DNA of 64,000 bases. It comes from Thermoanaerobaculia bacterium. GTDB taxonomy: Bacteria; Acidobacteriota; Thermoanaerobaculia; UBA5066. Below, in pieces: positions 2,255 through 61,812 of this stretch. How positions within the stretch are numbered: position 1 is the first letter of the stretch; every line of letters starts with the position of its first letter. A program made the position numbers and the translations under genes. The notes beneath the pieces are model-generated. The model had not been told where the DNA came from and made no database searches. It saw only the letters and a list, made by a program, of their open reading frames with translations. The stretch is from contig JBBRRY010000002.1 of the NCBI GenBank assembly GCA_038245905.1, forward strand, positions 160,001-224,000. Reading direction: 5' to 3'.

Positions 2255-2691
2255 GCGCGTGGCGACGTCGCGCCAAGCCGCGCCTGGGCGAGCACGCGAC
2301 AGAGAACGAGGCCGGGAACTCTCTCGAAATGCCGGATATTGCCCGTGACGAGCTCGAGACGGTGGCGGATCGCGGTCGCGGCGATCTGGAGATCGGCGTC
2401 CGCGAGAGGGCGGCCGCCCTTCTTCAGCCCGGCCTCGATCTCGCCGTAAACGCGCGCAACGGCCACGTCGAATGGGAGGACCGTGACCCTGGGCAACATG
2501 CGCCTCTCGATGTTCTCGAGGTGGAATCGGGCTCGCTCGGACCGAAACGCCCCCTTGTAGAGCTCCGCCGCGACGACCGCGCTCGTGAACTGGTCCTCGC
2601 GCGGCACGGTTCGAAGCCACTCGAGGTATGCAGGTGCGGGCCGCTTCCGAAGGACCTCGGAAATGGCGTCGGTGTCGAAGAGAAAGGCCAC
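2251..2691 (-). CDS. vapC: PIN-domain VapC toxin
   Basis: FLFDTDAISE, AELYKG, DLQIAATA and LVTGNIRHF PIN motifs. Confidence 0.9.
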   Translation of the reverse strand: MAFLFDTDAISEVLRKRPAPAYLEWLRTVPREDQFTSAVVAAELYKGAFRSERARFHLENIERRMLPRVTVLPFDVAVARVYGEIEAGLKKGGRPLADADLQIAATAIRHRLELVTGNIRHFERVPGLVLCRVLAQARLGATSPRA

Positions 2692-2985
2692 TCAGCTCCC
2701 GAGGCGTGGCCGCCGGCGCGGAGGAGACCTTCGGATCGCGCTCGTGTGCGCGACGAGCTCCTCAGAGCCGCTCCAACCACCCGCGACGGCCGCGAGGCCC
2801 TTTTCCGGCCCGGCGGCCCGGAGCCGGTTGACCCGCTCGGCATCCTTTGCGGGCACGACCGCCGCAACGTCCCTGCCGTGCCGCCGGATCATGACGATGG
2901 CGCCGGCCTCGGCTTCGCGGACGACCTCGGAGAAGCGTGCCTTCGCTTCGACGACGGAAACGAGACGAATCGGGTGGGCGCTCAT
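2692..2985 (-). CDS. Phd/YefM-family antitoxin paired with VapC
   Basis: VSVVEAKARFSEVVREAEAG...IRRHGRDVAAVVP; abuts vapC; AGAAAGG ribosome-binding site before the ATG. Confidence 0.85.
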   Translation of the reverse strand: MSAHPIRLVSVVEAKARFSEVVREAEAGAIVMIRRHGRDVAAVVPAKDAERVNRLRAAGPEKGLAAVAGGWSGSEELVAHTSAIRRSPPRRRPRLGS

Positions 2986-3020
2986 ATGACCTTTCTGGTC
3001 ATTATGATCTTTCAGGGCCG
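2986..3020 (-). promoter_or_regulatory. Putative operator/promoter of the phd-vapC pair
   Basis: Palindrome ATGACC-TTTCT-GGTCAT at 2986-3002, a degenerate copy 18 bp away, and CATAAT on the minus strand. Confidence 0.5.
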
Positions 3021-3062
3021 TTTCTTCAACGGAAGGCGGTGACTCCACCGCGGGCCGGGGTC

Positions 3063-3102
3063 TTGATCTGCGATCCATATTCTTGTACAGTACCCGTGTA
3101 CA
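3063..3102 (+). promoter_or_regulatory. yefM-yoeB promoter with two TGTACA operator cores
   Basis: TTGATC-17bp-TACAGT; TGTACA at 3084-3089 and 3097-3102, the core known from the E. coli yefM-yoeB operator. Confidence 0.7.
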
Positions 3103-3111
3103 TGTGACGCA

Positions 3112-3408
3112 ATGGCCATCGAAACGACCTACACACACGCCCGCGCCCACTTCGCCTCGCTCTGCGACGCGGTCATTCAGGATCGCAATTCCGTGATCAT
3201 CCGCCGGCGCGGCGCCGAGGATGTTGCGCTCGTGTCAGCGGCGGAGCTCAGGAGCCTCGAGGAAACCGCGCACCTTCTTCGGTCGCCAAAGAACGCGGCC
3301 CGGCTCCTCGCGGCCCTCAGCAGAGCGACGAGCCGCAGGTTGAAGCCCTCCTCGCCGGGTGCTCTCCGGACGAAGCTCGGCCTTCGTCCGGCGCGTCCAG
3401 GGCGTTGA
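3112..3408 (+). CDS. yefM: YefM antitoxin
   Basis: TTYTHARAHFASLCDAV...SLEETAHLLRSPKNAARL. Confidence 0.9.
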   Translation: MAIETTYTHARAHFASLCDAVIQDRNSVIIRRRGAEDVALVSAAELRSLEETAHLLRSPKNAARLLAALSRATSRRLKPSSPGALRTKLGLRPARPGR

Positions 3409-3674
3409 GCAGCGGGAAGCGACTCGCCGTCTTCCACCAGGAATTCCTGGAGGATCTTCGTTTCTGGGTGGACACGAATCGGAAGACCGCGCTGCGGGCT
3501 CTCGATCTCGTCGAAGAAATTCTCCGTGATCCCTTCGAAGGGATCGGAAAGCCGGAGCCGCTCAGACACCTCTACAAGGGGGCCTGGTCGCGCCGCCTGA
3601 CCGAGGAACACCGGCTGGTCTACCTTGTCCGGGAGGACCGCATCGACTTCCTTCAGGCGCGCTACCACTATTGA
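3405..3674 (+). CDS. yoeB: Txe/YoeB mRNA interferase toxin
   Basis: DPFEGIGKPEPL, WSRRLTEEHRLVY and C-terminal RYHY. Confidence 0.92.
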   Translation: MSSGKRLAVFHQEFLEDLRFWVDTNRKTALRALDLVEEILRDPFEGIGKPEPLRHLYKGAWSRRLTEEHRLVYLVREDRIDFLQARYHY

Positions 3675-3692
3675 GCGCGACGAAGCCGCGGG

Positions 3693-4277
<585 letters not shown>

Positions 4278-4282
4278 GGCGG

Positions 4283-4777
4283 CTACTCGCGGAAGAGGCT
4301 GTCGATGTCTTCGTCGGTGATCTCGGCGAAGGGCGAGTCGTAGCCCTCCTGGCGCCGCGTCTTCTCGCTCTCGACTTTCTTCTGGATCGTGTCGAAGATG
4401 CGCTCGAGCTCGCTGTTCGCCTTGCGCACCCGGAGGCGCACGAGGCCGAGGGACGAGCGTTCGTCGAAGATGACGACGAGGATGACCCGCTGTCCGACGA
4501 TCGAGATGTAGACGTTGTCGCGCTCACCCTCGTGGAACAGGACCGGAAATTCCTTCTCGCCGATGAGGCGCGCGAGGCCGTCCGTCGCGGCCACGTTGCC
4601 GGCCGTGAGCGAGGCGAGTGACGTCGTGTCGAGGGATTCCATGTCGCCCATGGCCGCGATCTGCTGCCCGTTTTTGTCGACGATGAAGACGACTTTCGCC
4701 TGCGCGTCCGCCTTCAGACGTCCGATGACGTCCTTGATCTGATGAAACTCCTCGTCAAACAGAATGAAATCGGACAT
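4283..4777 (-). CDS. mglB: MglB roadblock/LC7 GAP
   Basis: [23 protein letters not shown] and [10 protein letters not shown]. Confidence 0.95.
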
Positions 4778-4804
4778 GGGCCTTCGAGGGCCAAGTCTAC
4801 CCGA

Positions 4805-5413
4805 TCAGATCTCCCGGCGGCCCGAAAGGGACCTCGAGAGGGTGACTTCGTCGGCAAACTCGAGCGCGGCGCCCACCGGCAGGCCCAGTGCGAGGCGCGT
4901 CACTCGTACGCCGAGGGGCTTGAGCCGGCGCGCGAGATAGAGGGCCGTGGACTCCCCTTCAACGTTCGGATTCGTCGCGAGGAGGACCTCGTCGACGGCT
5001 TCCCCCTCGGCGGGATGCTCGACGCGCGCGACGAGATCGGCGACGTGGAGGTCGTCCGGCCCGATGCCGCGAAGCGGCGCAAGCACCCCGGCGAGCACGT
5101 GATAGCGGCCGCGGAACTCGTGGGTCCGCTCGAGAACGTAGACGTCCGCGGCGTCCTCGACGACCGCGAGAAGCCGCCGGTCGCGCGTCGGATCCGTGCA
5201 GATGTTGCAGGGATCGGTCTCGGTGAGGGCGTGGCAGATCGAGCACGAACGCATGCGCTCCCGCGCCTCGGCGACCGCCGCCGTGAGGGCCCCGGCCTCG
5301 TGCTCGGGAGCGGCGAGGAGGTAGTACGCGAGCCGGCGTGCGCTCTTCGGCCCGATGCCGGGCAGCCTCTCGAGAGCCGCCACGAGGCGCTCGAACGCCG
5401 GAAGCGCGGCCAT
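4805..5413 (-). CDS. recR: Recombination mediator RecR
   Basis: LPGIGPKSARRLA, C4 zinc finger, TOPRIM motif ATNPNVEGESTA. Confidence 0.95.
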   Translation of the reverse strand: MAALPAFERLVAALERLPGIGPKSARRLAYYLLAAPEHEAGALTAAVAEARERMRSCSICHALTETDPCNICTDPTRDRRLLAVVEDAADVYVLERTHEFRGRYHVLAGVLAPLRGIGPDDLHVADLVARVEHPAEGEAVDEVLLATNPNVEGESTALYLARRLKPLGVRVTRLALGLPVGAALEFADEVTLSRSLSGRREI

Positions 5414-27921: not shown

Positions 27922-31542
<3,621 letters not shown>

Positions 31543-52436: not shown

Positions 52437-54004
52437 CGTGCCGCTCCCCTGCGTTCCTCGAGCAGCGCTTTCGCCACGAGCCGGTCGTCAAAGGGCAGCT
52501 CGCGGTCGCCCACGACCTGACACGTCTCGTGCCCCTTCCCCGCGACGAGGACGACGTCTCCCGACCGCGCGAGAGAGAAGGCCTCGGCGAGCGCCTCGCG
52601 GCGGTCCACGAAGTAGCGCGCGGACTTCCCCGCCGCCTCCACGCCGGCGCGCACGTCCCGAAGGATCGCCTCGGGATCCTCGGAGCGCGGGTTGTCGGAG
52701 GTGACGACGACCTCGTCGGCGAGGAGAGCCGCGATGCGGCCCATCTCGGGGCGCTTGCCCTTGTCGCGGTCGCCACCGCATCCGAAAACGGCGATCACGC
52801 GGCCGCCGCGCGCCGCGGCGAGGGTGCGCACCGTCTGGAGCGCGCCCTCGAGAGCGGCCGGCTTGTGCGCGTAGTCGACGAGGACCGTCAGGCCGAGCGC
52901 GTTCGGCACGGCTTCGAGGCGGCCCGGGACGCTCGCGACGGCGCCCAGCCCTGCCGAGATCTCTCGAGGCGAAAGCCCGAGAGCAAGGCCGGCAGCCGCC
53001 GCGGCGAGCAGGTTCTCGGCGTTCGGGCGGCCGAGAAGAGGGGAATTTATGCTGAAGAGAAGACTTTCTTTGAAGGTGAATGTGCCAGCCACTTTGACCT
53101 CGAGGCGCGTCCCCGCGATCCCCAGCGTCGCGCGCCCGACGACGAGCGACGAGAGGCCCTTCCCCTCTTCCCCTTCAAAGAAATATTCCTGTTTTTTCTT
53201 CTCTGTCTTCTCTTCACCTTCCAAGCAAAAACCAACGACCCGATTTGCTTCGAGTCTGCTCGCGAGCTTCATCCCGTACGCGTCCCCAAGATTGACGACC
53301 GCTTTGCCGTTCTTCTTGAGCAAGCCGAAGAGCCGCGCCTTCGCCTCGAAGTAGTCGTCCATGTCGCGATGGAAATCGAGATGCTCGTGTGAGAGGTTCA
53401 GAAACACCGCGACGTCGAACGCGCAGCCCGCGAGACGCTCCAGGACGAGCGCGTGCGAAGAGCACTCGATGATCGCGGCTGTGCCGCCGTCCGCAACCAG
53501 GGCCTGAAGCATGGGCTGAAGATCCGTGGCTTCCGGGGTCGTGTGGGGGGACGCGATCGCCGCCGCGTCGCCGCCCGCGCCCCGGTAGACGATCGTGCCG
53601 AAGAAACCGCGCTTCGGGTGACGCCCCGCGAGAAGTCCCTCGAGAAGGTACGTCGTCGTCGTCTTGCCGCTCGTGCCGGTCACACCCGCCATCACGAGCC
53701 TTTCCGACGGCCTTCCGGCGAGGAGCGCCGCCACGAGACCTGCCGAGCGCCGGGGGTTCTCGACCTCGAGATACGGCACGGAGGCGGTCGCCGGCGCGGG
53801 CGCAAGTCCGAGCGCTGCCACGGCGCCTCGCCGCACGGCATCGGCGATGAAGTGACGGCCGTCCGCCTTCAAGCCGGGAAGCGCGGCGAAGAGCGTTCCC
53901 GGAGTTGCCGCACGCGAGTCGTGCGTGACCGAGAGGACCTCGGGGTCCCCCGGAGGTCCCGCGCGATGGTGCGGAACGTCCGCCGTGAGCGCGGAGAGCC
54001 TCAT
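52433..54004 (-). CDS. murE: MurE (meso-DAP-type ligase) with AT-rich in-frame insertions
   Basis: TGTSGKTTT, HTTP, SSH, EHLDFH, DYAH, GCGGDRD, DNPR and AGKGHE. Confidence 0.95.
   Translation of the reverse strand: MRLSALTADVPHHRAGPPGDPEVLSVTHDSRAATPGTLFAALPGLKADGRHFIADAVRRGAVAALGLAPAPATASVPYLEVENPRRSAGLVAALLAGRPSERLVMAGVTGTSGKTTTTYLLEGLLAGRHPKRGFFGTIVYRGAGGDAAAIASPHTTPEATDLQPMLQALVADGGTAAIIECSSHALVLERLAGCAFDVAVFLNLSHEHLDFHRDMDDYFEAKARLFGLLKKNGKAVVNLGDAYGMKLASRLEANRVVGFCLEGEEKTEKKKQEYFFEGEEGKGLSSLVVGRATLGIAGTRLEVKVAGTFTFKESLLFSINSPLLGRPNAENLLAAAAAGLALGLSPREISAGLGAVASVPGRLEAVPNALGLTVLVDYAHKPAALEGALQTVRTLAAARGGRVIAVFGCGGDRDKGKRPEMGRIAALLADEVVVTSDNPRSEDPEAILRDVRAGVEAAGKSARYFVDRREALAEAFSLARSGDVVLVAGKGHETCQVVGDRELPFDDRLVAKALLEERRGAAR
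53064..53229. repeat. Three copies of the AT-rich motif in murE (+53064-53083, -53165-53184, -53210-53229)
   Basis: CTTTCTTTGAAGGTGAATGT; ATTTCTTTGAAGGGGAAGAG; TTTGCTTGGAAGGTGAAGAG. Confidence 0.7.
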
Positions 54005-56037
54005 GGCGTATCTCCCGCCGCGGGCGCGAGCACGAGCGCACAGCTTCCGCCCCGCTCGGCGGCAGCGCCCGCGGGCGGTTCCTGGGACACGACGAACCCG
54101 GTTCCCGAAACGTGTGCCGCAAGTCCGCGTGCCGCGAGGAGCCTGACCGCGTCGCGCGCGCTCCGGCCGGAAACATCCGGCACGCGATCCTCAGCCTCGC
54201 CCGCGCGTTCCGGACGGTTCGACATGGGCACGACGTCGTCGGCATGGAGGCGGGCGCTCAGCGCGGCAGCCGCGGCCCCTCCGGCGAGATCGGCCGTGAG
54301 GATCGAGGGACGCGCCGCCCCGACCGGAGCCGCGGGCTCACGCAGGATGCGAAGCGTGTCCGCGCCGATCGCGGCGAATACGGGCGCCGCGACTTCGCCG
54401 CCGTACGTCCTTCCCTTCGGCTCGTCCACCACGACGGCGATCACCACGCGGGGATGGTCGGCTGGAGTGAACCCGATGAAGGACGCCACGTACTTCTCCC
54501 GGGAGTAGCCACCACCCGGCATCGCTTTCTGCGCCGTACCGGTCTTGCCGGCTGCGGTGTAACCCGGAATCGCGGCCGCTTTCCCCGTTCCCATCTCGAC
54601 GACCCTCTGGAGGAGGACCCGCATCACGCGTGCCGTTTCCGCGCTCATGAGGCGCCGCGGCGCTGGGCCCTCGATGCTCCGTTCCGGCGCACCTGGGATC
54701 TGAATCGCATGAACCATGTGCACTGCGGGAAGCACGCCGCCGTTCGCGATCGCCGCGTACGCCCGCGCCATCTGCAGGACCGTGACACCAATTTCCTGGC
54801 CGAACGCCATCGTCGGTAGCGTCAGAGAGCTCCATCCGGCCTTGTCCTGGAGGATGCCCGCGGTCTCACCTTCGAGCTCGACGCCCGTCTTCTGGCCGAA
54901 TCCGAAGTCCCTGACCGACTTGTAGAACGGGGCCCGGCCGATCGTCATGGCGACGTGGGCGATTCCGATATTCGAGGAGTGCGCGAGGATGTCCCCGATC
55001 GTGAGCGCGCTCCAACCCTTGCCTCCGTGCTCGTGAATCGTGCTGGATCCGATCGTGAGCGTGCCGCCGCCACAGTCGATCGGGTCGTCGAGAGAGATCG
55101 TGCCCGACTCGAGCGCGGTCGCGGCGGCCACGATCTTGAACGTCGATCCCGGTTCGTAGGCGTCCGCGAGCGGCCGGCAGCGCCGCGCATCGGCGTCCAC
55201 CTCCGAGAACCGGTTCGGGTCGAACGTGGGATACGAGGCGAGCGCGAGGATCGCTCCCGTCGCCGGATCGAGAACCACCGCCGAGGCCCCCTTCGCGTGC
55301 GATTCGGCGACGACCTTCGCGAGCTCGCGTTCGGCCGTGTGCTGGATGGCGGTCTGGAGCGTGAGGGTGAGCGACGCTCCCTCGTTGCCCTCGGCCGGAG
55401 CGTCGCCGCCGCCACGCGCCCGCGCCGAGTACGGGCGCTGCGCCGCGTCTTTAAGAAGCGTGACGAGGGCCGGCTTGCCGCGGACGTCGGCGTCGAAGCG
55501 ATATTCGAGCCCCGCGAGCCCCTGGTTGTCGGTGCCGACGTAGCCGAGAACCGCCGCCGCGAGCACGCCCTCGGGATAGCGCCGGGCCGATTCCGCGACG
55601 AGCTGGATCCCGGGGAGTCGCTTTTCGGCGATGAGGGTCTTGACGCGCGCGGCCACTCCGTCGCTCACGCGCCTGGCGATCCAGATGAAGTCGCGGTCCG
55701 GACTCTCGAGCTTCCGGGCGAGCTCTTTGGCCGAATGCTTGAGCAGGGGCGCGAGGAGGGCGGCCTCCTTGTCGGCGTCGGCGACGTCCGACGGAATCGC
55801 GAACACGGACTCGGCGCGGGCGTTGATCGCGAGGTAGGTGCCGTCGGCGGCCTTGATGACGCCGCGCCGCGGGGCGAGCTCGACGGTGCGCTCCTGCTGT
55901 CTGGCGGCACGGCGCGTGAACTCGTCCTTCCGGAGGACCTGCAGGTCGACGAGACGCACAAGGAGAACGAGAATCCACAGCCCGACACCCGCGAGCATGA
56001 CGAGAGCGCGGCGGTCCGGGCTCGGGGCGACGCTCAA
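54001..56037 (-). CDS. ftsI: PBP3/FtsI with PASTA domain
   Basis: EPGSTFK (SxxK), SSN and KTGT motifs; C-terminal PASTA domain. Confidence 0.95.
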   Translation of the reverse strand: MSVAPSPDRRALVMLAGVGLWILVLLVRLVDLQVLRKDEFTRRAARQQERTVELAPRRGVIKAADGTYLAINARAESVFAIPSDVADADKEAALLAPLLKHSAKELARKLESPDRDFIWIARRVSDGVAARVKTLIAEKRLPGIQLVAESARRYPEGVLAAAVLGYVGTDNQGLAGLEYRFDADVRGKPALVTLLKDAAQRPYSARARGGGDAPAEGNEGASLTLTLQTAIQHTAERELAKVVAESHAKGASAVVLDPATGAILALASYPTFDPNRFSEVDADARRCRPLADAYEPGSTFKIVAAATALESGTISLDDPIDCGGGTLTIGSSTIHEHGGKGWSALTIGDILAHSSNIGIAHVAMTIGRAPFYKSVRDFGFGQKTGVELEGETAGILQDKAGWSSLTLPTMAFGQEIGVTVLQMARAYAAIANGGVLPAVHMVHAIQIPGAPERSIEGPAPRRLMSAETARVMRVLLQRVVEMGTGKAAAIPGYTAAGKTGTAQKAMPGGGYSREKYVASFIGFTPADHPRVVIAVVVDEPKGRTYGGEVAAPVFAAIGADTLRILREPAAPVGAARPSILTADLAGGAAAAALSARLHADDVVPMSNRPERAGEAEDRVPDVSGRSARDAVRLLAARGLAAHVSGTGFVVSQEPPAGAAAERGGSCALVLAPAAGDTP

Positions 56038-56429
56038 GGCACGGCCTTGCCGGGTGCGGGCGCGGACGGAAGCGGAGAGACAGGAGACACGAGCGCCGTG
56101 TCCTTCACGAGGATGACCTGGTCGAGGGTGGGGGGCACGAGGCCCAGCGTGCCTCGCGCGATGGGCTCCACTCGCGCGAGCGCCGCGGCCTGGGCGCGGT
56201 CCATCTCGAGACGGTGCTTCCTCTCGAGCAGCGCGTCACGGTTCTTCGAGACGCCGGCGAGCTGGTATCCGAGGCCGACGGTTTCAAGATTCGCCCAGAT
56301 CGCAAGGAACAGGACCACCGCCGGCGGCACCGCGGCCAGAACGAGGGCGAGGAGCTCACGCGTCCGCCTGCGGTCGCGCTCACGCACGAGATAGAGATTT
56401 TCGACCGGGCGGCGGACCGCGTACGCCAT
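56034..56429 (-). CDS. ftsL: Cell division protein FtsL
   Basis: Single TM plus coiled coil, RVEPIAR..LGL; located between rsmH and ftsI. Confidence 0.8.
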   Translation of the reverse strand: MAYAVRRPVENLYLVRERDRRRTRELLALVLAAVPPAVVLFLAIWANLETVGLGYQLAGVSKNRDALLERKHRLEMDRAQAAALARVEPIARGTLGLVPPTLDQVILVKDTALVSPVSPLPSAPAPGKAVP

Positions 56430-56440
56430 GGGCGGAATTC

Positions 56441-57412
56441 CTACCGTTGGGGCGTGCCCGGACCGGCGCCGTCCTCGGCGACGCGCTCGAGGACGCGCAT
56501 CCGCGCCGAGCGCGCGCGGGGGTTTTCGCCGAGCTCGGCGAGCGTGGGGCGAAGCGACTTGCGCGTGACGAGCGCCATGACGCGGCGCCGCGAGCACACG
56601 CATACGGGGAACGACGGCGGGCACGAGCAACCCGCCGTGTGGCGGAGGAACGTGTGCTTGACGATGCGATCCTCGAGCGAGTGGTACGACAGGACGGAGA
56701 GACGCGCGCCGAGCGCCAGACGCTCGACCGCGTCGTCGAGGAAGCGCTCGAGCTCGACGAGCTCGCGGTTCGTCGCGATGCGCAGAGCCTGGAAAACGCG
56801 GGTCGCGGGGTCCTTGTGCATCGGGCGCTTCGGCCTCAGAACCTTCAGCACGAGGTTTCTCATCTCGCCGGTCGTCCGGATGGGCGCCGTGTTCCGAGCC
56901 TCTACGACCTTTCGAGCGATCGGTCCCGCCATGCGCTCCTCCCCCCACTCGCGGAAGATCCGCGTCAACTCTTCGCGTGAGGCCGTCGCCACGAGGTCGG
57001 CGGCCGAAGGTCCCGAAGCGCCCATGCGCATGTCCAGCGGACCTTCCTTCATGAACGAAAACCCCCGCTCCGGGAGGTCCAGCTGCATCGAGGAGACCCC
57101 GAGGTCCGCGAGGATGCCGTCCACGCGCGGCAGGTCGAGACCATCGAGATGGGCCGCGAGATCCTCGTGCCGCCCCTCGACCGTGACGAGCCGGTCGCCG
57201 AACGAGGCGAGCCGCTCGCGGGCGATCCGGAGCGCCTCGGGGTCGCGGTCGATCCCGACGACGCGCGTCTCCGGAGAGGCCTCGAGAAGAGCCCGCGCGT
57301 GTCCGCCGAGGCCGAGCGTCGCGTCGACATAGATCCCGCCCCGCTCCGGCCGGAGCGCCGCGACGACCTCCCGAAGGAGGACGGGGACGTGAACCGCGCC
57401 GGCTTCGGGCAT
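56441..57412 (-). CDS. rsmH: 16S rRNA m4C1402 methyltransferase
   Basis: HVPVL, DATLGLGGH, DLGVSSMQLD, LDMRM and YHSLEDR. Confidence 0.97.
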   Translation of the reverse strand: MPEAGAVHVPVLLREVVAALRPERGGIYVDATLGLGGHARALLEASPETRVVGIDRDPEALRIARERLASFGDRLVTVEGRHEDLAAHLDGLDLPRVDGILADLGVSSMQLDLPERGFSFMKEGPLDMRMGASGPSAADLVATASREELTRIFREWGEERMAGPIARKVVEARNTAPIRTTGEMRNLVLKVLRPKRPMHKDPATRVFQALRIATNRELVELERFLDDAVERLALGARLSVLSYHSLEDRIVKHTFLRHTAGCSCPPSFPVCVCSRRRVMALVTRKSLRPTLAELGENPRARSARMRVLERVAEDGAGPGTPQR

Positions 57413-57418
57413 AGCGCG

Positions 57419-57865
57419 TCAGACGAGATGGCGTGCGAGTTCGTCGTAGTCCTCATCCGTGATCACGGCCGTGCGGAGGTTCTTGAGATGTTTCGTGCGG
57501 TCGACGAGCTTCAGGTGGTCGGTCTGTCCGAGCACGAGGGCGCCTCCCTCGATCCCCGAGACCTCGCGCAGGAGCGAGGGAACGAGGAGGCGGCCCTGCG
57601 CGTCAATGCGTGCCACCTGCCCATAGGTGTTGAGGCGCTCCTGAAACTTCGCTTTCGCGCGGTGGATCGCCGGCATCGCGGCCAGCTTTTCCTCCAGCGC
57701 GTTCCAGACCGGCATCGGAAAGACCAGAACATCGACACCGGAAATGGACGTCAGGAAGAATTCGGGCCCGAACGTGTCCTCGATCGGCGCGCGAAAAACG
57801 GAAGGGACCTTGAAGCGGCCCTTCTCATCCACCGTTGTTTCCGCGCTGCCCCGAAGGCGGTCCAT
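57419..57865 (-). CDS. mraZ: Transcriptional regulator MraZ
   Basis: Two DxxGR motifs (DEKGR, DAQGR); first gene of the dcw cluster. Confidence 0.92.
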   Translation of the reverse strand: MDRLRGSAETTVDEKGRFKVPSVFRAPIEDTFGPEFFLTSISGVDVLVFPMPVWNALEEKLAAMPAIHRAKAKFQERLNTYGQVARIDAQGRLLVPSLLREVSGIEGGALVLGQTDHLKLVDRTKHLKNLRTAVITDEDYDELARHLV

Positions 57866-57909
57866 ACTCTTCCCCTGGAAAAGAAGTTCGCGGGCGGCGT
57901 CGCGGAAAT

Positions 57910-57963
57910 CCCCCGGTTACCCGGGCAACCCACAAGACGCCACTGTTGACCACTTATTTCCAC
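57910..57963 (-). promoter_or_regulatory. MraZ-binding GTGG repeats, 10-bp period
   Basis: CCAC at 57930, 57940, 57950 and 57960; degenerate CCCC/CCCG at 57910 and 57920. Confidence 0.8.
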
Positions 57964-58059
57964 GGCGAGTATCCGGCTCGAATCGGGCTGGCGTCAAGCG
58001 AAATCCCTCAGGCGGAGCACGTTGCGGACCCGCCACTGCCCCGGTGTACCCTCGGGGCG

Positions 58060-59199
58060 GTGACGGACTCTTCCCCTCTCAGTGGTGTTCGCCTCGTCTC
58101 CGAAGCCGGGTCGTTCGGTGCGCTCCTCACCGCGCTCGACGAGAGCGTCGGCGCCGACGTCGCGCTCGACACGGAGGCGGACTCTTTTCATCACTACTTC
58201 GAGAAGGTGTGCCTCCTACAGCTCTCGTGGGACGGAAGGGCCCACCTCGTGGACCCGCTGCAGTCACTCGACGTCGGTGCCCTCCTCGCGCGGCTCGCGC
58301 CGCGCCGGCTTCTCATGCACGGGGCGGACTACGACCTGAGGCTCCTCTTTCGCGGATACGGCTTTCGCGCGACGTCGCTCTTCGATACGATGTTCGCGGC
58401 CCAGCTTCTCGGCGAGAAGGAGATCGGCCTCGCGGCGCTCCTTCAGGCGCGCGTCGGCGTGACGCTCGACAAGGCGCATCAGCGAGCCGACTGGAGCGAG
58501 CGGCCGCTCACGCCTCCACTCGTCGCTTACGCGGCGGCCGACGTCCTCCACCTCGCGGCGCTCGTCGAGTCGATGGCGCGGGACCTCGAAGCGAAGGGCC
58601 GCCTCGCGTGGCACGCCGAGGAGTGCGCGCGCCTCGCCGCCGCGACTTTCCCGCAGGGACGCGACGCGGATCCCGAGAACGACTGGCGGATCAAGGGCTC
58701 GAACGGCCTGACGGACAAGGAGCGCGCCTTCGCGCGCGCTCTCTGGGAGGCGCGCGACGCCCGCGCCCGCGCCCTCGACCGCCCCCCGTTCCGCGTTCTC
58801 ACGAACGAGCGGCTGCTTCTCGCCGCGAAGCCGGCCGCCGCAGGCGAGAAGGATCTTTCGAAGCTCTTCCCGGGCCCCCGCCCGCTGCCCGACGCCTTCG
58901 CCCGCGCGCTGCGCGAGGCCCTGGAGGGCGCCGCCGCCCTTCCGCCGTCCGAATGGCCGCGGGTCCGCCGCGGCGAACGTGTCGAGTCCGACCCCGCGCT
59001 CGAACGCGACGTTGAGGCCCTGAAGAAGTCCCGGGACGCGAAGGCCACCGCGCTCGGCCTCGATCCAGGAGTCCTCGCCTCCCGCGCGGTCCTCACGACG
59101 GCGGCGAAGACGCGCCGCGCGAATGGACGCCTGACGGCTGACCTCCTCGTCACCGAGGGCGGGCTCTCGCGCTGGCGCGCCGAGCTCCTCGCGGTCTGA
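58060..59199 (+). CDS. rnd: Ribonuclease D (with HRDC)
   Basis: ALDTE, LLQL, HGADYD, FDT, DWSERPL, YAAADV and ARALDRPPFRVL. Confidence 0.9.
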   Translation: MTDSSPLSGVRLVSEAGSFGALLTALDESVGADVALDTEADSFHHYFEKVCLLQLSWDGRAHLVDPLQSLDVGALLARLAPRRLLMHGADYDLRLLFRGYGFRATSLFDTMFAAQLLGEKEIGLAALLQARVGVTLDKAHQRADWSERPLTPPLVAYAAADVLHLAALVESMARDLEAKGRLAWHAEECARLAAATFPQGRDADPENDWRIKGSNGLTDKERAFARALWEARDARARALDRPPFRVLTNERLLLAAKPAAAGEKDLSKLFPGPRPLPDAFARALREALEGAAALPPSEWPRVRRGERVESDPALERDVEALKKSRDAKATALGLDPGVLASRAVLTTAAKTRRANGRLTADLLVTEGGLSRWRAELLAV

Positions 59200-59208
59200 C
59201 GCGCCGGC

Positions 59209-60885
59209 CTAGAACCTCGCGATGAGGCCGCCGTAGGCGTCGCCCTGGTTGAGGTAGTTCGTGTCGTAGTAGTTGTAGCACCCGTAGACCGGGTCGCAGG
59301 ACGCGGACGCGCCGCTCGCCGAGTTGATGTAGACGGGCAGCCAGCGCGCGCCGAGGCGGAGTCCGAAGTGGTCGCCAAGGTAGTACTTGATCCCGCCGCC
59401 GATGCTCGCCGAGAAGCGCGAGAGCGTCGAGAGCTCGGGCGAAGGCGTCAGGATCGTGACCCCGAACAGGACGTCGAAGTAGAGGCGGGCTTTGTTGCTC
59501 GGGTCGCCCGACATCCACATCCCGCCGAGTTGGATCGTGTCGACGTTCAAGTGGGAGAGTTTCTCGTCGTTCCCGATCCCGGCCGCCGTGAACTTCGCTG
59601 TGAGATTCGTGTTCTGGTGGCTCCAGAGGGCCTCGAGGGAGCCCCATGGCGTCACGGCGTATTCGACCGTCAATCCCCAGCTCAGCGAATCCTTCACGTC
59701 TACCTTCTCGATATACGCCGTGGCGGACTCCGACGTCGTGCCGCCGAAACGCCAGCCCGCGGTGGGGGTGATCTCGAAGACCGGGAGGCGCAAGGCCGTC
59801 GTCACCGGACCGGTACTGACTCCCGCGATCCCGGCGGCCTGGTCGGCCACGCCGGGACCCGCGGCCTGCGAGAAGCCCGGGGGCGGAGGGGGAGGCGTGA
59901 AGTAGGGCCGGGCCTCGGCGTTCACCTTGATGAACGCTTCGCGCTTGAGCTTGTCGAGGTACTCGGCGAGCTTCTTCTGGAACTGGGTGTCCTGCTCGCG
60001 CTTGAGGAGCCCCGCCTTCACGTCGCCGAACGGCTTGTATGAGACGGGGACCTTCTCGATGACCTTCACGAGGTGCCAGCCGAATTTCGTCCCGATCGGG
60101 TCCGACACCGTTCCCACGGCCAACGAGAACACCGCTTTGTCGATCTCGGCTGTGAGCTCGCCGCGCGCCACCGTGCCGAGATCGCCGCCCCGCGCCTTCG
60201 TGGCCCCGTCCGAATAGTCCTTCACGACGGCCTCGAATTTCGCGCCGCCCTTGACGAGGTCCGAGGCCTCTTTCGCGCGGCGCGCCGCCCGCGCGGGGTC
60301 GTCGCCGTTCGACACGAGGATCTCGGCGAGATGCGCCTTCTCGGGCACGCGCCACGTCTCCTTCTCGCGCTCGTAGATGATGCGCAGGGCGTCGTCCGAC
60401 AGGTCGACCTTGCTGTTCACCTCGCGGCCGACGACGCGCTGAAGCGTTACGGTGCGGCGCAGCTGGTCGCGCAGGCGGTCGATCGTGAGGCCGGATTGCG
60501 CGAGCCCCTTCGCAAAGTCCTCGTCCGTCGTGACGTTGTTCTGCTCTTTGAGCCGCTTGATCTGGTCCTCGATCTCGGCGTCCGACGTGACGAGGTCGAG
60601 CTCCTTTGCGCGGTCCTCGAGGAGCGCCTCGTTCACGAGCTCTTCGAGGACGCTCTTTTTCATCTCCTCGCGCTTGGCCGCGTTGGGCGGGGGGCCCGAC
60701 TCGCGGATGGTCTGATCGATCCGCGCGTCGAACTGGCTCTGCGTGATGATCCGCGAGTTCACGTGCACGAGGATGCTGTTGACGACCTCGCCGGCCCGAA
60801 GAGGCGCCGCGGCGAGACAGACGGTAAGAGCCGCAAAGAGAAATACTACGGAAAAGAGGACACGGGGGAGCCGAAATGACTTCAC
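59209..60885 (-). CDS. SurA-like parvulin PPIase fused to a C-terminal outer-membrane beta-barrel
   Basis: Signal peptide, SurA_N-like region (VNSRIITQSQF), rotamase (HLAEIL, GGDLG, FGWHLV), P6 linker, amphipathic strands ending GGLIARF. Confidence 0.85.
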   Translation of the reverse strand: MKSFRLPRVLFSVVFLFAALTVCLAAAPLRAGEVVNSILVHVNSRIITQSQFDARIDQTIRESGPPPNAAKREEMKKSVLEELVNEALLEDRAKELDLVTSDAEIEDQIKRLKEQNNVTTDEDFAKGLAQSGLTIDRLRDQLRRTVTLQRVVGREVNSKVDLSDDALRIIYEREKETWRVPEKAHLAEILVSNGDDPARAARRAKEASDLVKGGAKFEAVVKDYSDGATKARGGDLGTVARGELTAEIDKAVFSLAVGTVSDPIGTKFGWHLVKVIEKVPVSYKPFGDVKAGLLKREQDTQFQKKLAEYLDKLKREAFIKVNAEARPYFTPPPPPPGFSQAAGPGVADQAAGIAGVSTGPVTTALRLPVFEITPTAGWRFGGTTSESATAYIEKVDVKDSLSWGLTVEYAVTPWGSLEALWSHQNTNLTAKFTAAGIGNDEKLSHLNVDTIQLGGMWMSGDPSNKARLYFDVLFGVTILTPSPELSTLSRFSASIGGGIKYYLGDHFGLRLGARWLPVYINSASGASASCDPVYGCYNYYDTNYLNQGDAYGGLIARF

Positions 60886-60933: not shown

Positions 60934-61812
60934 TCAGCGCGATTCAGCGCTCTTGGCGTTCGATCCGACGTACGGGAACGGGAGATGATCCTCGACCACC
61001 GACACCGGAAAGCGCAGGCGGGCTCCGGCGATGGCCTCTCCGACCGCCCGTGCGCTGCGGTCCTCGGCGACCACGATCCGAAGCCCCGGAAGAGCCTCCT
61101 CGAACGTCACGTCGCGCGCATCGAGGCGCTCGTCGACGCGAAACACGTGGAAACCGTGGGGCGTCGCCAGCACGGTGCTCGTCTTTCCGGTGGAAAGGCT
61201 CCACACCGCCTTTTCGAACTCGCGGGGCAGGTCGAGGCGTCCGAGGAGGCCCAGCGAGCCACCAGACGCCGCGTTGGGCGCGACGCTCGAGGCGCGCGAC
61301 ACGTCTCCCCAGCTCTCGCCCATGGCGAGGCGTTTCACCGAGGCGTCGGCATCCTCCCGCGTGCGGAACATGAGCTGCGACACGCGCACGAGGGCGGGCC
61401 TCCTGTAGCGCGCGGGATGGGCGTCGTACTCCCTCCTGAAGTCTGCGTCCTCGAGCGTTTCGAGCCCGGCGACACGATTCAGGAACGCGCGGCGCTTCTC
61501 CCGGAGAGTCGTGCCGGGAACCTTCGGCTCGGCGGCTTCCACGGCTCGCGCGAGAAGCACCTCGTCGAGGTACTGGTCGAGAAGGCTCGAGAGAACGCGC
61601 GGCGAGATGTTCTTCGAGTCTTCGCTCGTCGCCGTCTTCACCCATGCCATGAATGCGTTCAGGGTGACCGGCCGATCGCCCGCCATCGCGATCGTTTCCG
61701 GCCGCGACAGCGCGGGTGGGCCGCTCTTCGGCGCGCAGCCCTCCGAAACGAGGGCCGCGGCGGCCGCCGCAACGAGAGCCACGAGAGCAAATGAAGGCCC
61801 GGTGCGCCTCAT
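60934..61812 (-). CDS. Parvulin-type PPIase lipoprotein
   Basis: Lipobox-like VSEGC; GGSLG and TPHGFHVF motifs. Confidence 0.85.
   Translation of the reverse strand: MRRTGPSFALVALVAAAAAALVSEGCAPKSGPPALSRPETIAMAGDRPVTLNAFMAWVKTATSEDSKNISPRVLSSLLDQYLDEVLLARAVEAAEPKVPGTTLREKRRAFLNRVAGLETLEDADFRREYDAHPARYRRPALVRVSQLMFRTREDADASVKRLAMGESWGDVSRASSVAPNAASGGSLGLLGRLDLPREFEKAVWSLSTGKTSTVLATPHGFHVFRVDERLDARDVTFEEALPGLRIVVAEDRSARAVGEAIAGARLRFPVSVVEDHLPFPYVGSNAKSAESR

Follow-up and report, generated by a model that had tools for sequence, protein, structure and literature searches.

The subject of this article is the gene at 59209-60885 on the minus strand of the window, that is, of the whole 64,000-nucleotide stretch of a Thermoanaerobaculia genome that was analysed here. 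The gene is predicted to encode, in one exported chain, a SurA-type chaperone with a single parvulin domain, a linker of approximately 40 residues and an eight-stranded outer-membrane beta-barrel, and it is considered reasonably probable that the barrel serves to keep SurA, on the periplasmic side, at the inner face of the outer membrane. The fusion itself is a real and conserved variant of SurA with an optional outer-membrane barrel anchor, the anchoring role being putative. No description of a natural SurA-barrel fusion was found in the literature covered (CC (Creative Commons)-licensed PMC papers and bioRxiv), and the only match in the ESM Atlas was the protein's own cluster (86 members, Acidobacteriota).

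The reading frame opens with GTG and, in the list of open reading frames (ORFs) of the window, runs uninterrupted for 558 amino acids (aa) up to a stop codon at 59209-59211, with a 100% match to its own genome (G000:C2:219212-220885). The initial annotation of this DNA had described a single frame of that length with SurA_N-like and parvulin domains, a hexaproline and Ala-Gly linker, a two-cysteine loop and a terminal phenylalanine, all of which were recovered here. The N-terminus consists of M-K-S-F-R, a hydrophobic stretch and then LRAG, and the homologues start alike. By a reading of the letters, residues 1-31 (60793-60885), with a basic end, a hydrophobic core and a cut between LRA and G, are predicted to form a Sec-type signal peptide; the predicted local distance difference test score (pLDDT) is below 50 over residues 1-34. 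The SurA N-terminal chaperone domain follows at residues 35-160 (60406-60783), where three Pfam families scored above their cut-offs in the whole protein, namely SurA_N_3 (residues 24-151, 62.4 bits, cut-off 27.2), SurA_N_2 (43.1 bits, cut-off 28.5) and SurA_N (residues 35-151, 42.9 bits, cut-off 30.8). The single parvulin domain (PpiC-type) occupies residues 175-280 (60046-60363) and was identified by Rotamase (residues 195-276, 73 bits, cut-off 21.7), Rotamase_3 (65.3 bits) and Rotamase_2 (59.6 bits). In a sequence search of the PDB this domain matched the parvulin domains of PrsA, SurA and Pin1, with PrsA the best (E 3e-14). Among 93 aligned fused sequences the parvulin residues H271 and E188 are invariant (93/93) and H185 is kept in 50/93; the PDB sequence alignments of the parvulin start past the region of the first histidine or misalign it. 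A C-terminal helix (residues 286-316) and a short strand (residues 319-321), assigned by DSSP on the AlphaFold2 model with pLDDT 81-86, complete the SurA core (residues 286-321, 59923-60030). Beyond it lies the flexible Pro/Ala/Gly-rich linker with its hexaproline (residues 329-369, 59779-59901), with a length of 32-50 residues (median 39) and a composition of 18.5% P, 17.2% A and 10.1% G in the 93 sequences.

The full-length AlphaFold2 model was built from an alignment of the window protein and 92 of its 97 long non-self matches (P0008, P0012, P0015, P0021 and P0023 were left out). The mean pLDDT was 81.4, with 81-93 in the SurA part and approximately 90 in the barrel, and values below 50 were found solely at residues 1-34 and 336-367; three parts can be told apart in the model, the SurA module and the C-terminal domain being folded and the linker between them disordered. 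When the N-terminal part was compared with the PDB using Foldseek, the matches were to SurA in its complex with BAM, the machinery that assembles beta-barrels (9hg5_F, E 1.9e-16, TM-score by target (TMt) 0.50), and to SurA 2pv3_A (TMt 0.53), and also to 1m5y, the one-parvulin SurA-like proteins 3nrk, 3rfw and 3rgc, and PrsA. The root mean square deviations of the SurA alignments were high (11-23 A, at 15-20% identity), because the domains are hinged. The C-terminal part of the same model matched OmpA, OmpW, NspA and OmpX.

The barrel occupies residues 370-558 (59212-59778) and is of the OmpA/OmpW/OmpX-like kind, as indicated by PF13505, AlphaFold2, Foldseek and 980 representative homologues. 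It begins at F370 (window 59778) and offers no start codon that would give it a separate signal peptide; the absence of such a peptide had been noted in the initial annotation, and the stand-alone homologues do have one. A roughly eight-stranded barrel had also been proposed there, and a second AlphaFold2 model, of the barrel alone, supports this. This model, for which 96 sequences were used (13 fused, including that of the window, 9 stand-alone from the loci and 74 of 150 representatives), is a closed antiparallel eight-stranded barrel with a mean pLDDT of 90.0 and a predicted TM-score (pTM) of 0.83. Its best Foldseek matches were all eight-stranded, with the OmpA transmembrane domain (9fzc_A; TM-score by query (TMq) 0.64, TMt 0.72) and OmpW (2f1v_A, TMq 0.60) followed by NspA (1p4t, TMt 0.69), the N-domain of OprF (4rlc, TMt 0.76), Ail and OmpX. 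The modelled strands are connected by 18, 9, 6 and 24 residues on one side and by 4, 7 and 4 on the other, the chain enters and leaves the barrel on the short-turn side, and the strands are more conserved than the loops. In OmpA-type barrels the short-turn side bearing both ends is periplasmic, and therefore the SurA module should, by this modelled topology, sit in the periplasm. The long loop L4, as placed by the barrel model, holds a two-cysteine motif (residues 530-536, 59278-59298), with C530 and C536 present in 93/93 sequences and probably forming a disulphide on the cell-surface side. The C-terminal end (residues 551-558, 59212-59235) resembles a beta-signal, with Gly at -5 (G553, 86/93), a hydrophobic residue at -2 and the terminal F558 (93/93); a terminal aromatic residue within a beta-signal consensus is what BAM recognises.

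The initial annotation had named reads and relatives as a place where two separate genes might appear, and no split was found at the locus in either. A Logan contig of 2064 nucleotides (nt) from run X1, at a depth of 58.9, covers 59100-60741 with 0 differences, running from the end of rnd through the barrel and the linker across most of surA. It was built separately, and X1 is probably the source sample, hence the contig is not fully independent of the source genome, which is metagenome-assembled (113 contigs, 96% complete). The fused genes extracted from related genomes were intact single ORFs of 544-563 aa in 16/16 cases. Among the 120 protein matches listed, 98, the window's own included, have lengths of 519-575 aa, with 93-100% query coverage and 52-100% identity, and the remainder comprises 3 of 453-486 aa and 19 of 333-372 aa. 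Judged by these sequences, the recurrence of the in-frame architecture in 97 other long metagenomic proteins is not a matter of chance. All 52 of the 52 longer proteins with this barrel belong to the same SurA fusion family, with no other architecture among them. The ratios of nonsynonymous to synonymous substitution rates (dN/dS; Nei-Gojobori, own script, 12 pairs) ranged over 0.12-0.56 in the SurA part, over 0.10-0.71 in the barrel and over 0.08-1.9 in the linker. These values indicate purifying selection on both the SurA part and the barrel, the former being the more constrained, with the linker behaving as a spacer. The remaining runs (X2-X20) contained <0.15 of the sampled words, and the contigs of X2 were of relatives only. 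One metagenome protein, P0271 (756 aa), matches window residues 221-491 and then continues in another frame through GC-rich sequence, which suggests a frameshifted gene call or a broken copy.

What the initial annotation overlooked is that the barrel is optional, half of the genomes of the family carrying the gene without it. With two samples united, one Thermoanaerobaculia family is represented by 43 genomes, with the fused form in 21 (six genera), the short form in 21 and no orthologue in 1. The sample of nearest genomes, 61 including that of the window, contributed 16 fused genes, found in 13 of the 29 genomes of the window's genus and in 3 of other genera of the family; a further 20 family genomes in it carry the short form, and no orthologue was found in G028 (90% complete). 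In two sister families the gene is short in 24/24 genomes. A class-wide sample of 251 genomes (match threshold E <= 1e-45) gave matches in 125, with all 13 fused genes within the same family and no match reaching the barrel in any of the 103 matching genomes outside it (0/103). The unpublished genomes G037, G042, G164, G202 and G206 enter into the short-form counts made outside the family; the counts of fused forms rest on none of these. Both states show the same gene order, with mfd, the gene of the probable parvulin lipoprotein, surA (barrel present or absent), convergent rnd and mraZ, and locus comparison found no remnant of a barrel at the short-form loci.

The barrel-less orthologues of the family, which include the window's nearest kin, are 322-379 aa long, and 18 of the 21 end in a Pro/Ala/Thr stretch followed by a Lys/Arg-rich tail; those of the sister families are 323-336 aa with short Lys-containing tails. 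The basic tail of the family forms (loci L017-L034) might provide an alternative adhesion to an anionic surface. The two states were also met within one sample. A barrel-less relative is present in X1 at about one third of the depth of the fused form (window 59199-59939); it has a depth of 20.6 and 104 differences in 803 nt, and 157 other letters stand in it in place of 739 nt that include the barrel. In another genus, genome G030 (L040, G030:C44) carries a fused surA-barrel gene of 544 aa (3532-5139) directly followed by a barrel-less surA of 379 aa (2525-3442). These tandem copies are sisters on the N-terminal tree (starred branch, 100), with the short copy on a long branch. In a sister-family genome (G057:C1:1769849-1770768) the SurA match comes as two overlapping stretches, residues 19-233 and residues 212-321, that lie in different frames, which may be a frameshift.

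To place the barrel, it was searched alone against 1.84 billion representatives, and 980 proteins passed the threshold of E <= 1e-3. Of the best 150, nearly all are 200-240 aa in length, and a single full-length SurA fusion (P0013) was met. Genomes of the window's own family supply the nearest stand-alone homologues (44-50% identical). These carry a separate signal peptide, and in the alignment the start of the mature protein coincides with the first strand of the fused barrel. Such stand-alone PF13505 outer-membrane proteins of Thermoanaerobaculia (e.g., a 235-aa frame in L041, 50% identical) share with the fusion the homologous whole barrel, the two-cysteine loop and the terminal Arg/Lys-Phe, but they lack a chaperone module and lie at other loci. 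Stand-alone barrels at 44-53% identity were recorded at L041 (G031:C1), L042 and L043 and in G168, G172 and G271, and they occur in genomes with the fused surA as well as in one with the short surA (G031). As far as these alignments indicate, the barrel came from a family of small stand-alone outer-membrane proteins and is an optional 3' cassette. On the barrel tree the 16 fused barrels cluster together (Shimodaira-Hasegawa-like approximate likelihood ratio test (SH-aLRT) 94), and the barrel was apparently fused once within this one family, the tree being compatible with a single event.

The history of the cassette after that event appears to be a different one from that of its surroundings. 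The trees used were quick searches, the groups were named after the trees had been seen, and the SurA tree was made on the N-terminal 330 residues. The fused and short states are scattered on the SurA-part tree (7 changes, at least 3 of them forced by starred branches) and on the rnd tree (6 changes, at least 5 forced). On rnd the window falls in a clade with five short-form genomes (starred branch, 100), and a clade of the window with ten all-fused genomes is rejected (approximately unbiased test, p-AU 7e-5). On the barrel tree the window instead groups with those ten all-fused genomes (starred branch, 99), and a clade that joins it to the two remaining fused genomes of its group is rejected (p-AU 3e-4). 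The identity of the window protein to the short-form group is 86-100% up to approximately residue 300, 80-90% at residues 301-320 and 33-57% at residues 321-335, where the identity to the all-fused clade is 73-93%. The segment identities and the junction alignment place this switch from the short-form group to the all-fused clade at about residues 321-329 (59900-59925, minus strand). For the SurA part alone, a clade of the window with the ten all-fused genomes was not rejected (p-AU 0.655, the constrained tree being 3.75 log units better), and therefore the SurA part by itself does not prove a mosaic. It is the conflict between the barrel and rnd histories, together with the identity switch, that suggests movement of the linker-plus-barrel cassette between lineages by recombination. 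Because the Lys-rich ending is shared inside and outside the family, we infer that the short allele came first and was retained alongside the fused allele, and that it was not regenerated through repeated deletions.

The separate parts of the protein resemble known systems, from which the whole differs. Escherichia coli SurA (1m5y, 2pv3; with BAM in 9hg5 and 8pz1), the best structural match, is alike in its N-domain, parvulin and core-closing C-terminal element, but it has two parvulins and is soluble, whereas the window protein, for which a signal peptide is predicted, has one parvulin and an approximately 40-residue linker with an outer-membrane barrel. SurA binds unfolded outer-membrane proteins and docks on POTRA-1 of BamA, and its loss impairs the assembly of such proteins; the barrel attached here marks a difference but casts no doubt on the homology. 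The one-parvulin SurA-like proteins found among the Foldseek matches (LIC12922 of Leptospira, 3nrk; PEB4 and Cj1289 of Campylobacter, 3rfw and 3rgc; HP0175 of Helicobacter, 5ez1) have the same N-domain and single parvulin, but their PDB titles describe soluble proteins, periplasmic or secreted, and they have no barrel. Tethering of parvulin chaperones is known at the cytoplasmic membrane, for the Gram-positive lipoprotein PrsA (4wo7, 1zk6) by its lipid and for PpiD by its inner-membrane helix. These anchors are N-terminal, in contrast to that of the fusion, which would be a C-terminal beta-barrel in the outer membrane.

A comparable anchor is that of the Bacteroides anti-sigma factor Dma1, in which, according to excerpts of the source, anchoring in the outer membrane is provided by an eight-stranded OMP_b-brl-type barrel that sits at the C-terminus behind a disordered linker, and the barrel reached the outer membrane and vesicles experimentally (PMC10927553). 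Dma1 and the fusion thus share an eight-stranded C-terminal barrel on a long disordered region. They differ in that the N-terminus of Dma1, as described there, is an inner-membrane-anchored anti-sigma factor and the protein spans the envelope, whereas the fusion has a SurA module after a predicted signal peptide and no anti-sigma domain. Closest in the order of parts are engineered chimeras, SurA-OmpX and SurA-EspP (PMC11366764; PDB 8qpv, 8qp5) and SurA at the N-terminus of BamA (PMC13545206), which are reported in the extracts of these papers to be exported and to engage BAM. In these SurA likewise precedes the barrel, and OmpX is also eight-stranded; as those extracts present them they are laboratory traps for folding intermediates, whereas the natural chain places 32-50 linker residues before a barrel that is conserved and presumably folds fully.

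From the architecture, the fold models, the conservation and the distribution we infer the following course of insertion, topology, tethering and chaperone activity. The signal peptide would direct the chain through Sec, and BAM would recognise the C-terminal beta-signal and insert the barrel into the outer membrane. The SurA module would stay periplasmic, within approximately 13 nm of the outer membrane's inner face, the furthest that a leash of about 39 residues at about 3.4 A each can reach. There it would hold unfolded outer-membrane proteins and pass them to BamA, stationed and not freely diffusing.

A number of observations weigh against this proposal. The initial annotation had pointed to an architecture of SurA_N, Rotamase and outer-membrane barrel in Pfam, and although this was found, the barrel family is marginal in it; PF13505 at residues 376-514 scored 25.9 bits in the whole protein, below the cut-off of 28.7, and 29.0 bits, barely above it, in the isolated C-terminal 196 aa, and it is present in the precomputed Pfam list for 5/52 longer relatives. 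The barrel is predicted to insert in the membrane, but a barrel modelled by AlphaFold2 is no proof of insertion. In the RNA runs X18 and X20 contigs were found over the SurA part alone, with 85-90% likeness (hence relatives), and none over the barrel, which speaks neither for nor against transcription. The barrel is evolutionarily dispensable, being absent from 21/43 family genomes, including the five that group with the window on rnd (starred branch, 100), and the tether is therefore not essential to SurA function. OmpX joined directly to SurA cannot finish folding and needs an extra linker, according to excerpts of PMC11366764; the natural linker of approximately 40 residues may be long enough. 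The exposed linker could also be cleaved, as Dma1 yields C-terminal fragments (PMC10927553, in the parts available).

Such cleavage is central to one alternative, in which the linker is cut after export to give a soluble SurA and a small outer-membrane protein, the fusion serving to couple their synthesis. The fragments of Dma1, itself a barrel-on-linker protein, speak for it, as do the disorder, variability and near absence of constraint of the linker (pLDDT <50, dN/dS up to 1.9) and the occurrence of both halves as functional stand-alone proteins in relatives. However, no conserved cleavage motif is visible in the linkers of the 93 sequences, in which just length and composition are kept, and a cleaved barrel would gain nothing from the fusion, its stand-alone kin using signal peptides of their own. 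We also know of no precedent for SurA in which two unrelated products are coupled in this way, and this alternative is given only a slim chance. A similarly small probability is assigned to the idea that the barrel, as a structural or small-solute outer-membrane protein, is the functional part and SurA its built-in escort, acting in cis with little general chaperone role. A related stand-alone barrel is also kept in fused genomes of other genera (G033, G030, G168, G172, G271), G030 keeps its second, barrel-less surA in tandem, and client becomes more concentrated locally on SurA in the engineered SurA-OmpX (PMC11366764, as excerpted), all of which would agree with an escort. Against this, some 980 stand-alone relatives of the barrel need no private chaperone, and the SurA part is both the more constrained half and orthologous and syntenic to barrel-less SurA. 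It also presumably serves all clients, being the only SurA N-domain protein of the genome other than PpiD; SurA_N_3 was found in two proteins, the fusion and a PpiD-like protein with an N-terminal membrane helix, and the fusion is the sole SurA-type chaperone found besides the latter in a 96%-complete genome, whose incompleteness cannot prove absence.

The order of passenger, linker and C-terminal barrel also resembles that of type Va autotransporters, and the barrel could in principle export the SurA module to the cell surface. This is very improbable and was rejected, as the barrel has 8 strands and not 12, the models have no helix inside it, and autotransporter translocators gave a TMq of 0.32-0.36 (NalP 1uyn 0.32, EspP 3slj 0.33), far below the eight-stranded matches; the barrel-less orthologues, moreover, are ordinary exported SurA proteins. 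Least credible is an artefact of assembly or gene calling, with two genes merged by a frameshift or a chimeric contig. A metagenome-assembled source of 113 contigs and the frameshifted call of the relative P0271 might raise such a concern, but it is effectively refuted by the separately built contig that crosses the junction with 0 differences at a depth of 58.9 and by the in-frame relatives (21 genomes of six genera and 97 other long proteins of several sources), and the barrel part lacks a start codon and signal peptide with which to be a gene of its own.

Tethering of a periplasmic SurA by its own barrel is thus the reading that we retain. A bolder extension of it, which we regard as rather unlikely, is that in this organism the sole SurA is permanently moored, so that it would not shuttle across the periplasm and clients would reach it beside BAM. 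The barrel and the Lys-rich tail would then be interchangeable 3' cassettes, both present from the time of the fusion onwards and exchanged across species through homologous recombination, and selection on the exposed barrel loops (e.g., by phages) may maintain the polymorphism.

The gene lies between two conserved neighbours. Upstream, at a distance of 48 nt, is a 292-aa parvulin protein (60934-61812, minus strand), which the initial annotation had called a lipoprotein peptidylprolyl isomerase (PPIase). The parvulin part of that claim is upheld by Rotamase_2 (61.7 bits), while its lipoprotein nature is probable from the letters, which offer a possible lipobox (...SEGC); some 120 N-terminal residues have no Pfam match. 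This protein adjoins surA in every family locus that reaches it and in the sister family f3, and no match to it was found in four f2 loci. Downstream and convergent is the RNase D gene rnd (57835-59199, plus strand; DNA_pol_A_exo1 98.3 bits, HRDC 35 bits), also in conserved synteny. The stops of rnd (59197-59199) and of the fusion (59209-59211) are 9 nt apart, leaving therefore no room for separate terminators. Beyond rnd there is the start of an ordinary division and cell-wall cluster on the minus strand (54001-57865) with mraZ (57419-57865), rsmH (56441-57412), a small ftsL-like ORF and an ftsI-type penicillin-binding protein gene (54001-56037); these labels were read from the ORF translations, and mraZ was also matched in relatives. 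Elsewhere in the genome there are two Omp85 proteins, one of which is BamA, adjoining skp. The same genome carries a second barrel fusion (L003:160-2070, minus strand; G000:C1, approximately 29128-31038), with a signal peptide, an N-terminal OMP_b-brl barrel (37.7 bits), a Pro/Ala linker and DUF3943 (111.1 bits).

It is debated whether an ATP-independent chaperone moves its clients from the Sec translocon to BAM as a diffusing shuttle or as a relay stationed at the membrane. Capture of the SurA hand-over by cryo-electron microscopy made use of built chimeras of SurA with OmpX, EspP and BamA (PMC11366764, PMC13545206, as far as excerpted). The fusion described here is a natural counterpart of such an engineered chain, under purifying selection in 21 genomes, and its natural linker length presumably lets the barrel fold. 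It would also be a second case, unrelated to the Dma of Bacteroides, of a small eight-stranded barrel that serves at the C-terminus as an anchor in the outer membrane. Both the parts and the tethering principle are familiar; a SurA with an optional barrel anchor is so far undescribed in the literature covered, with a function that is putative, and the architecture is hidden in the databases, where these proteins are annotated just as 'peptidylprolyl isomerase', 'parvulin-like' or 'SurA'. As congeners with and without the barrel occur in identical synteny, this family offers a ready comparison of a tethered with a free SurA.

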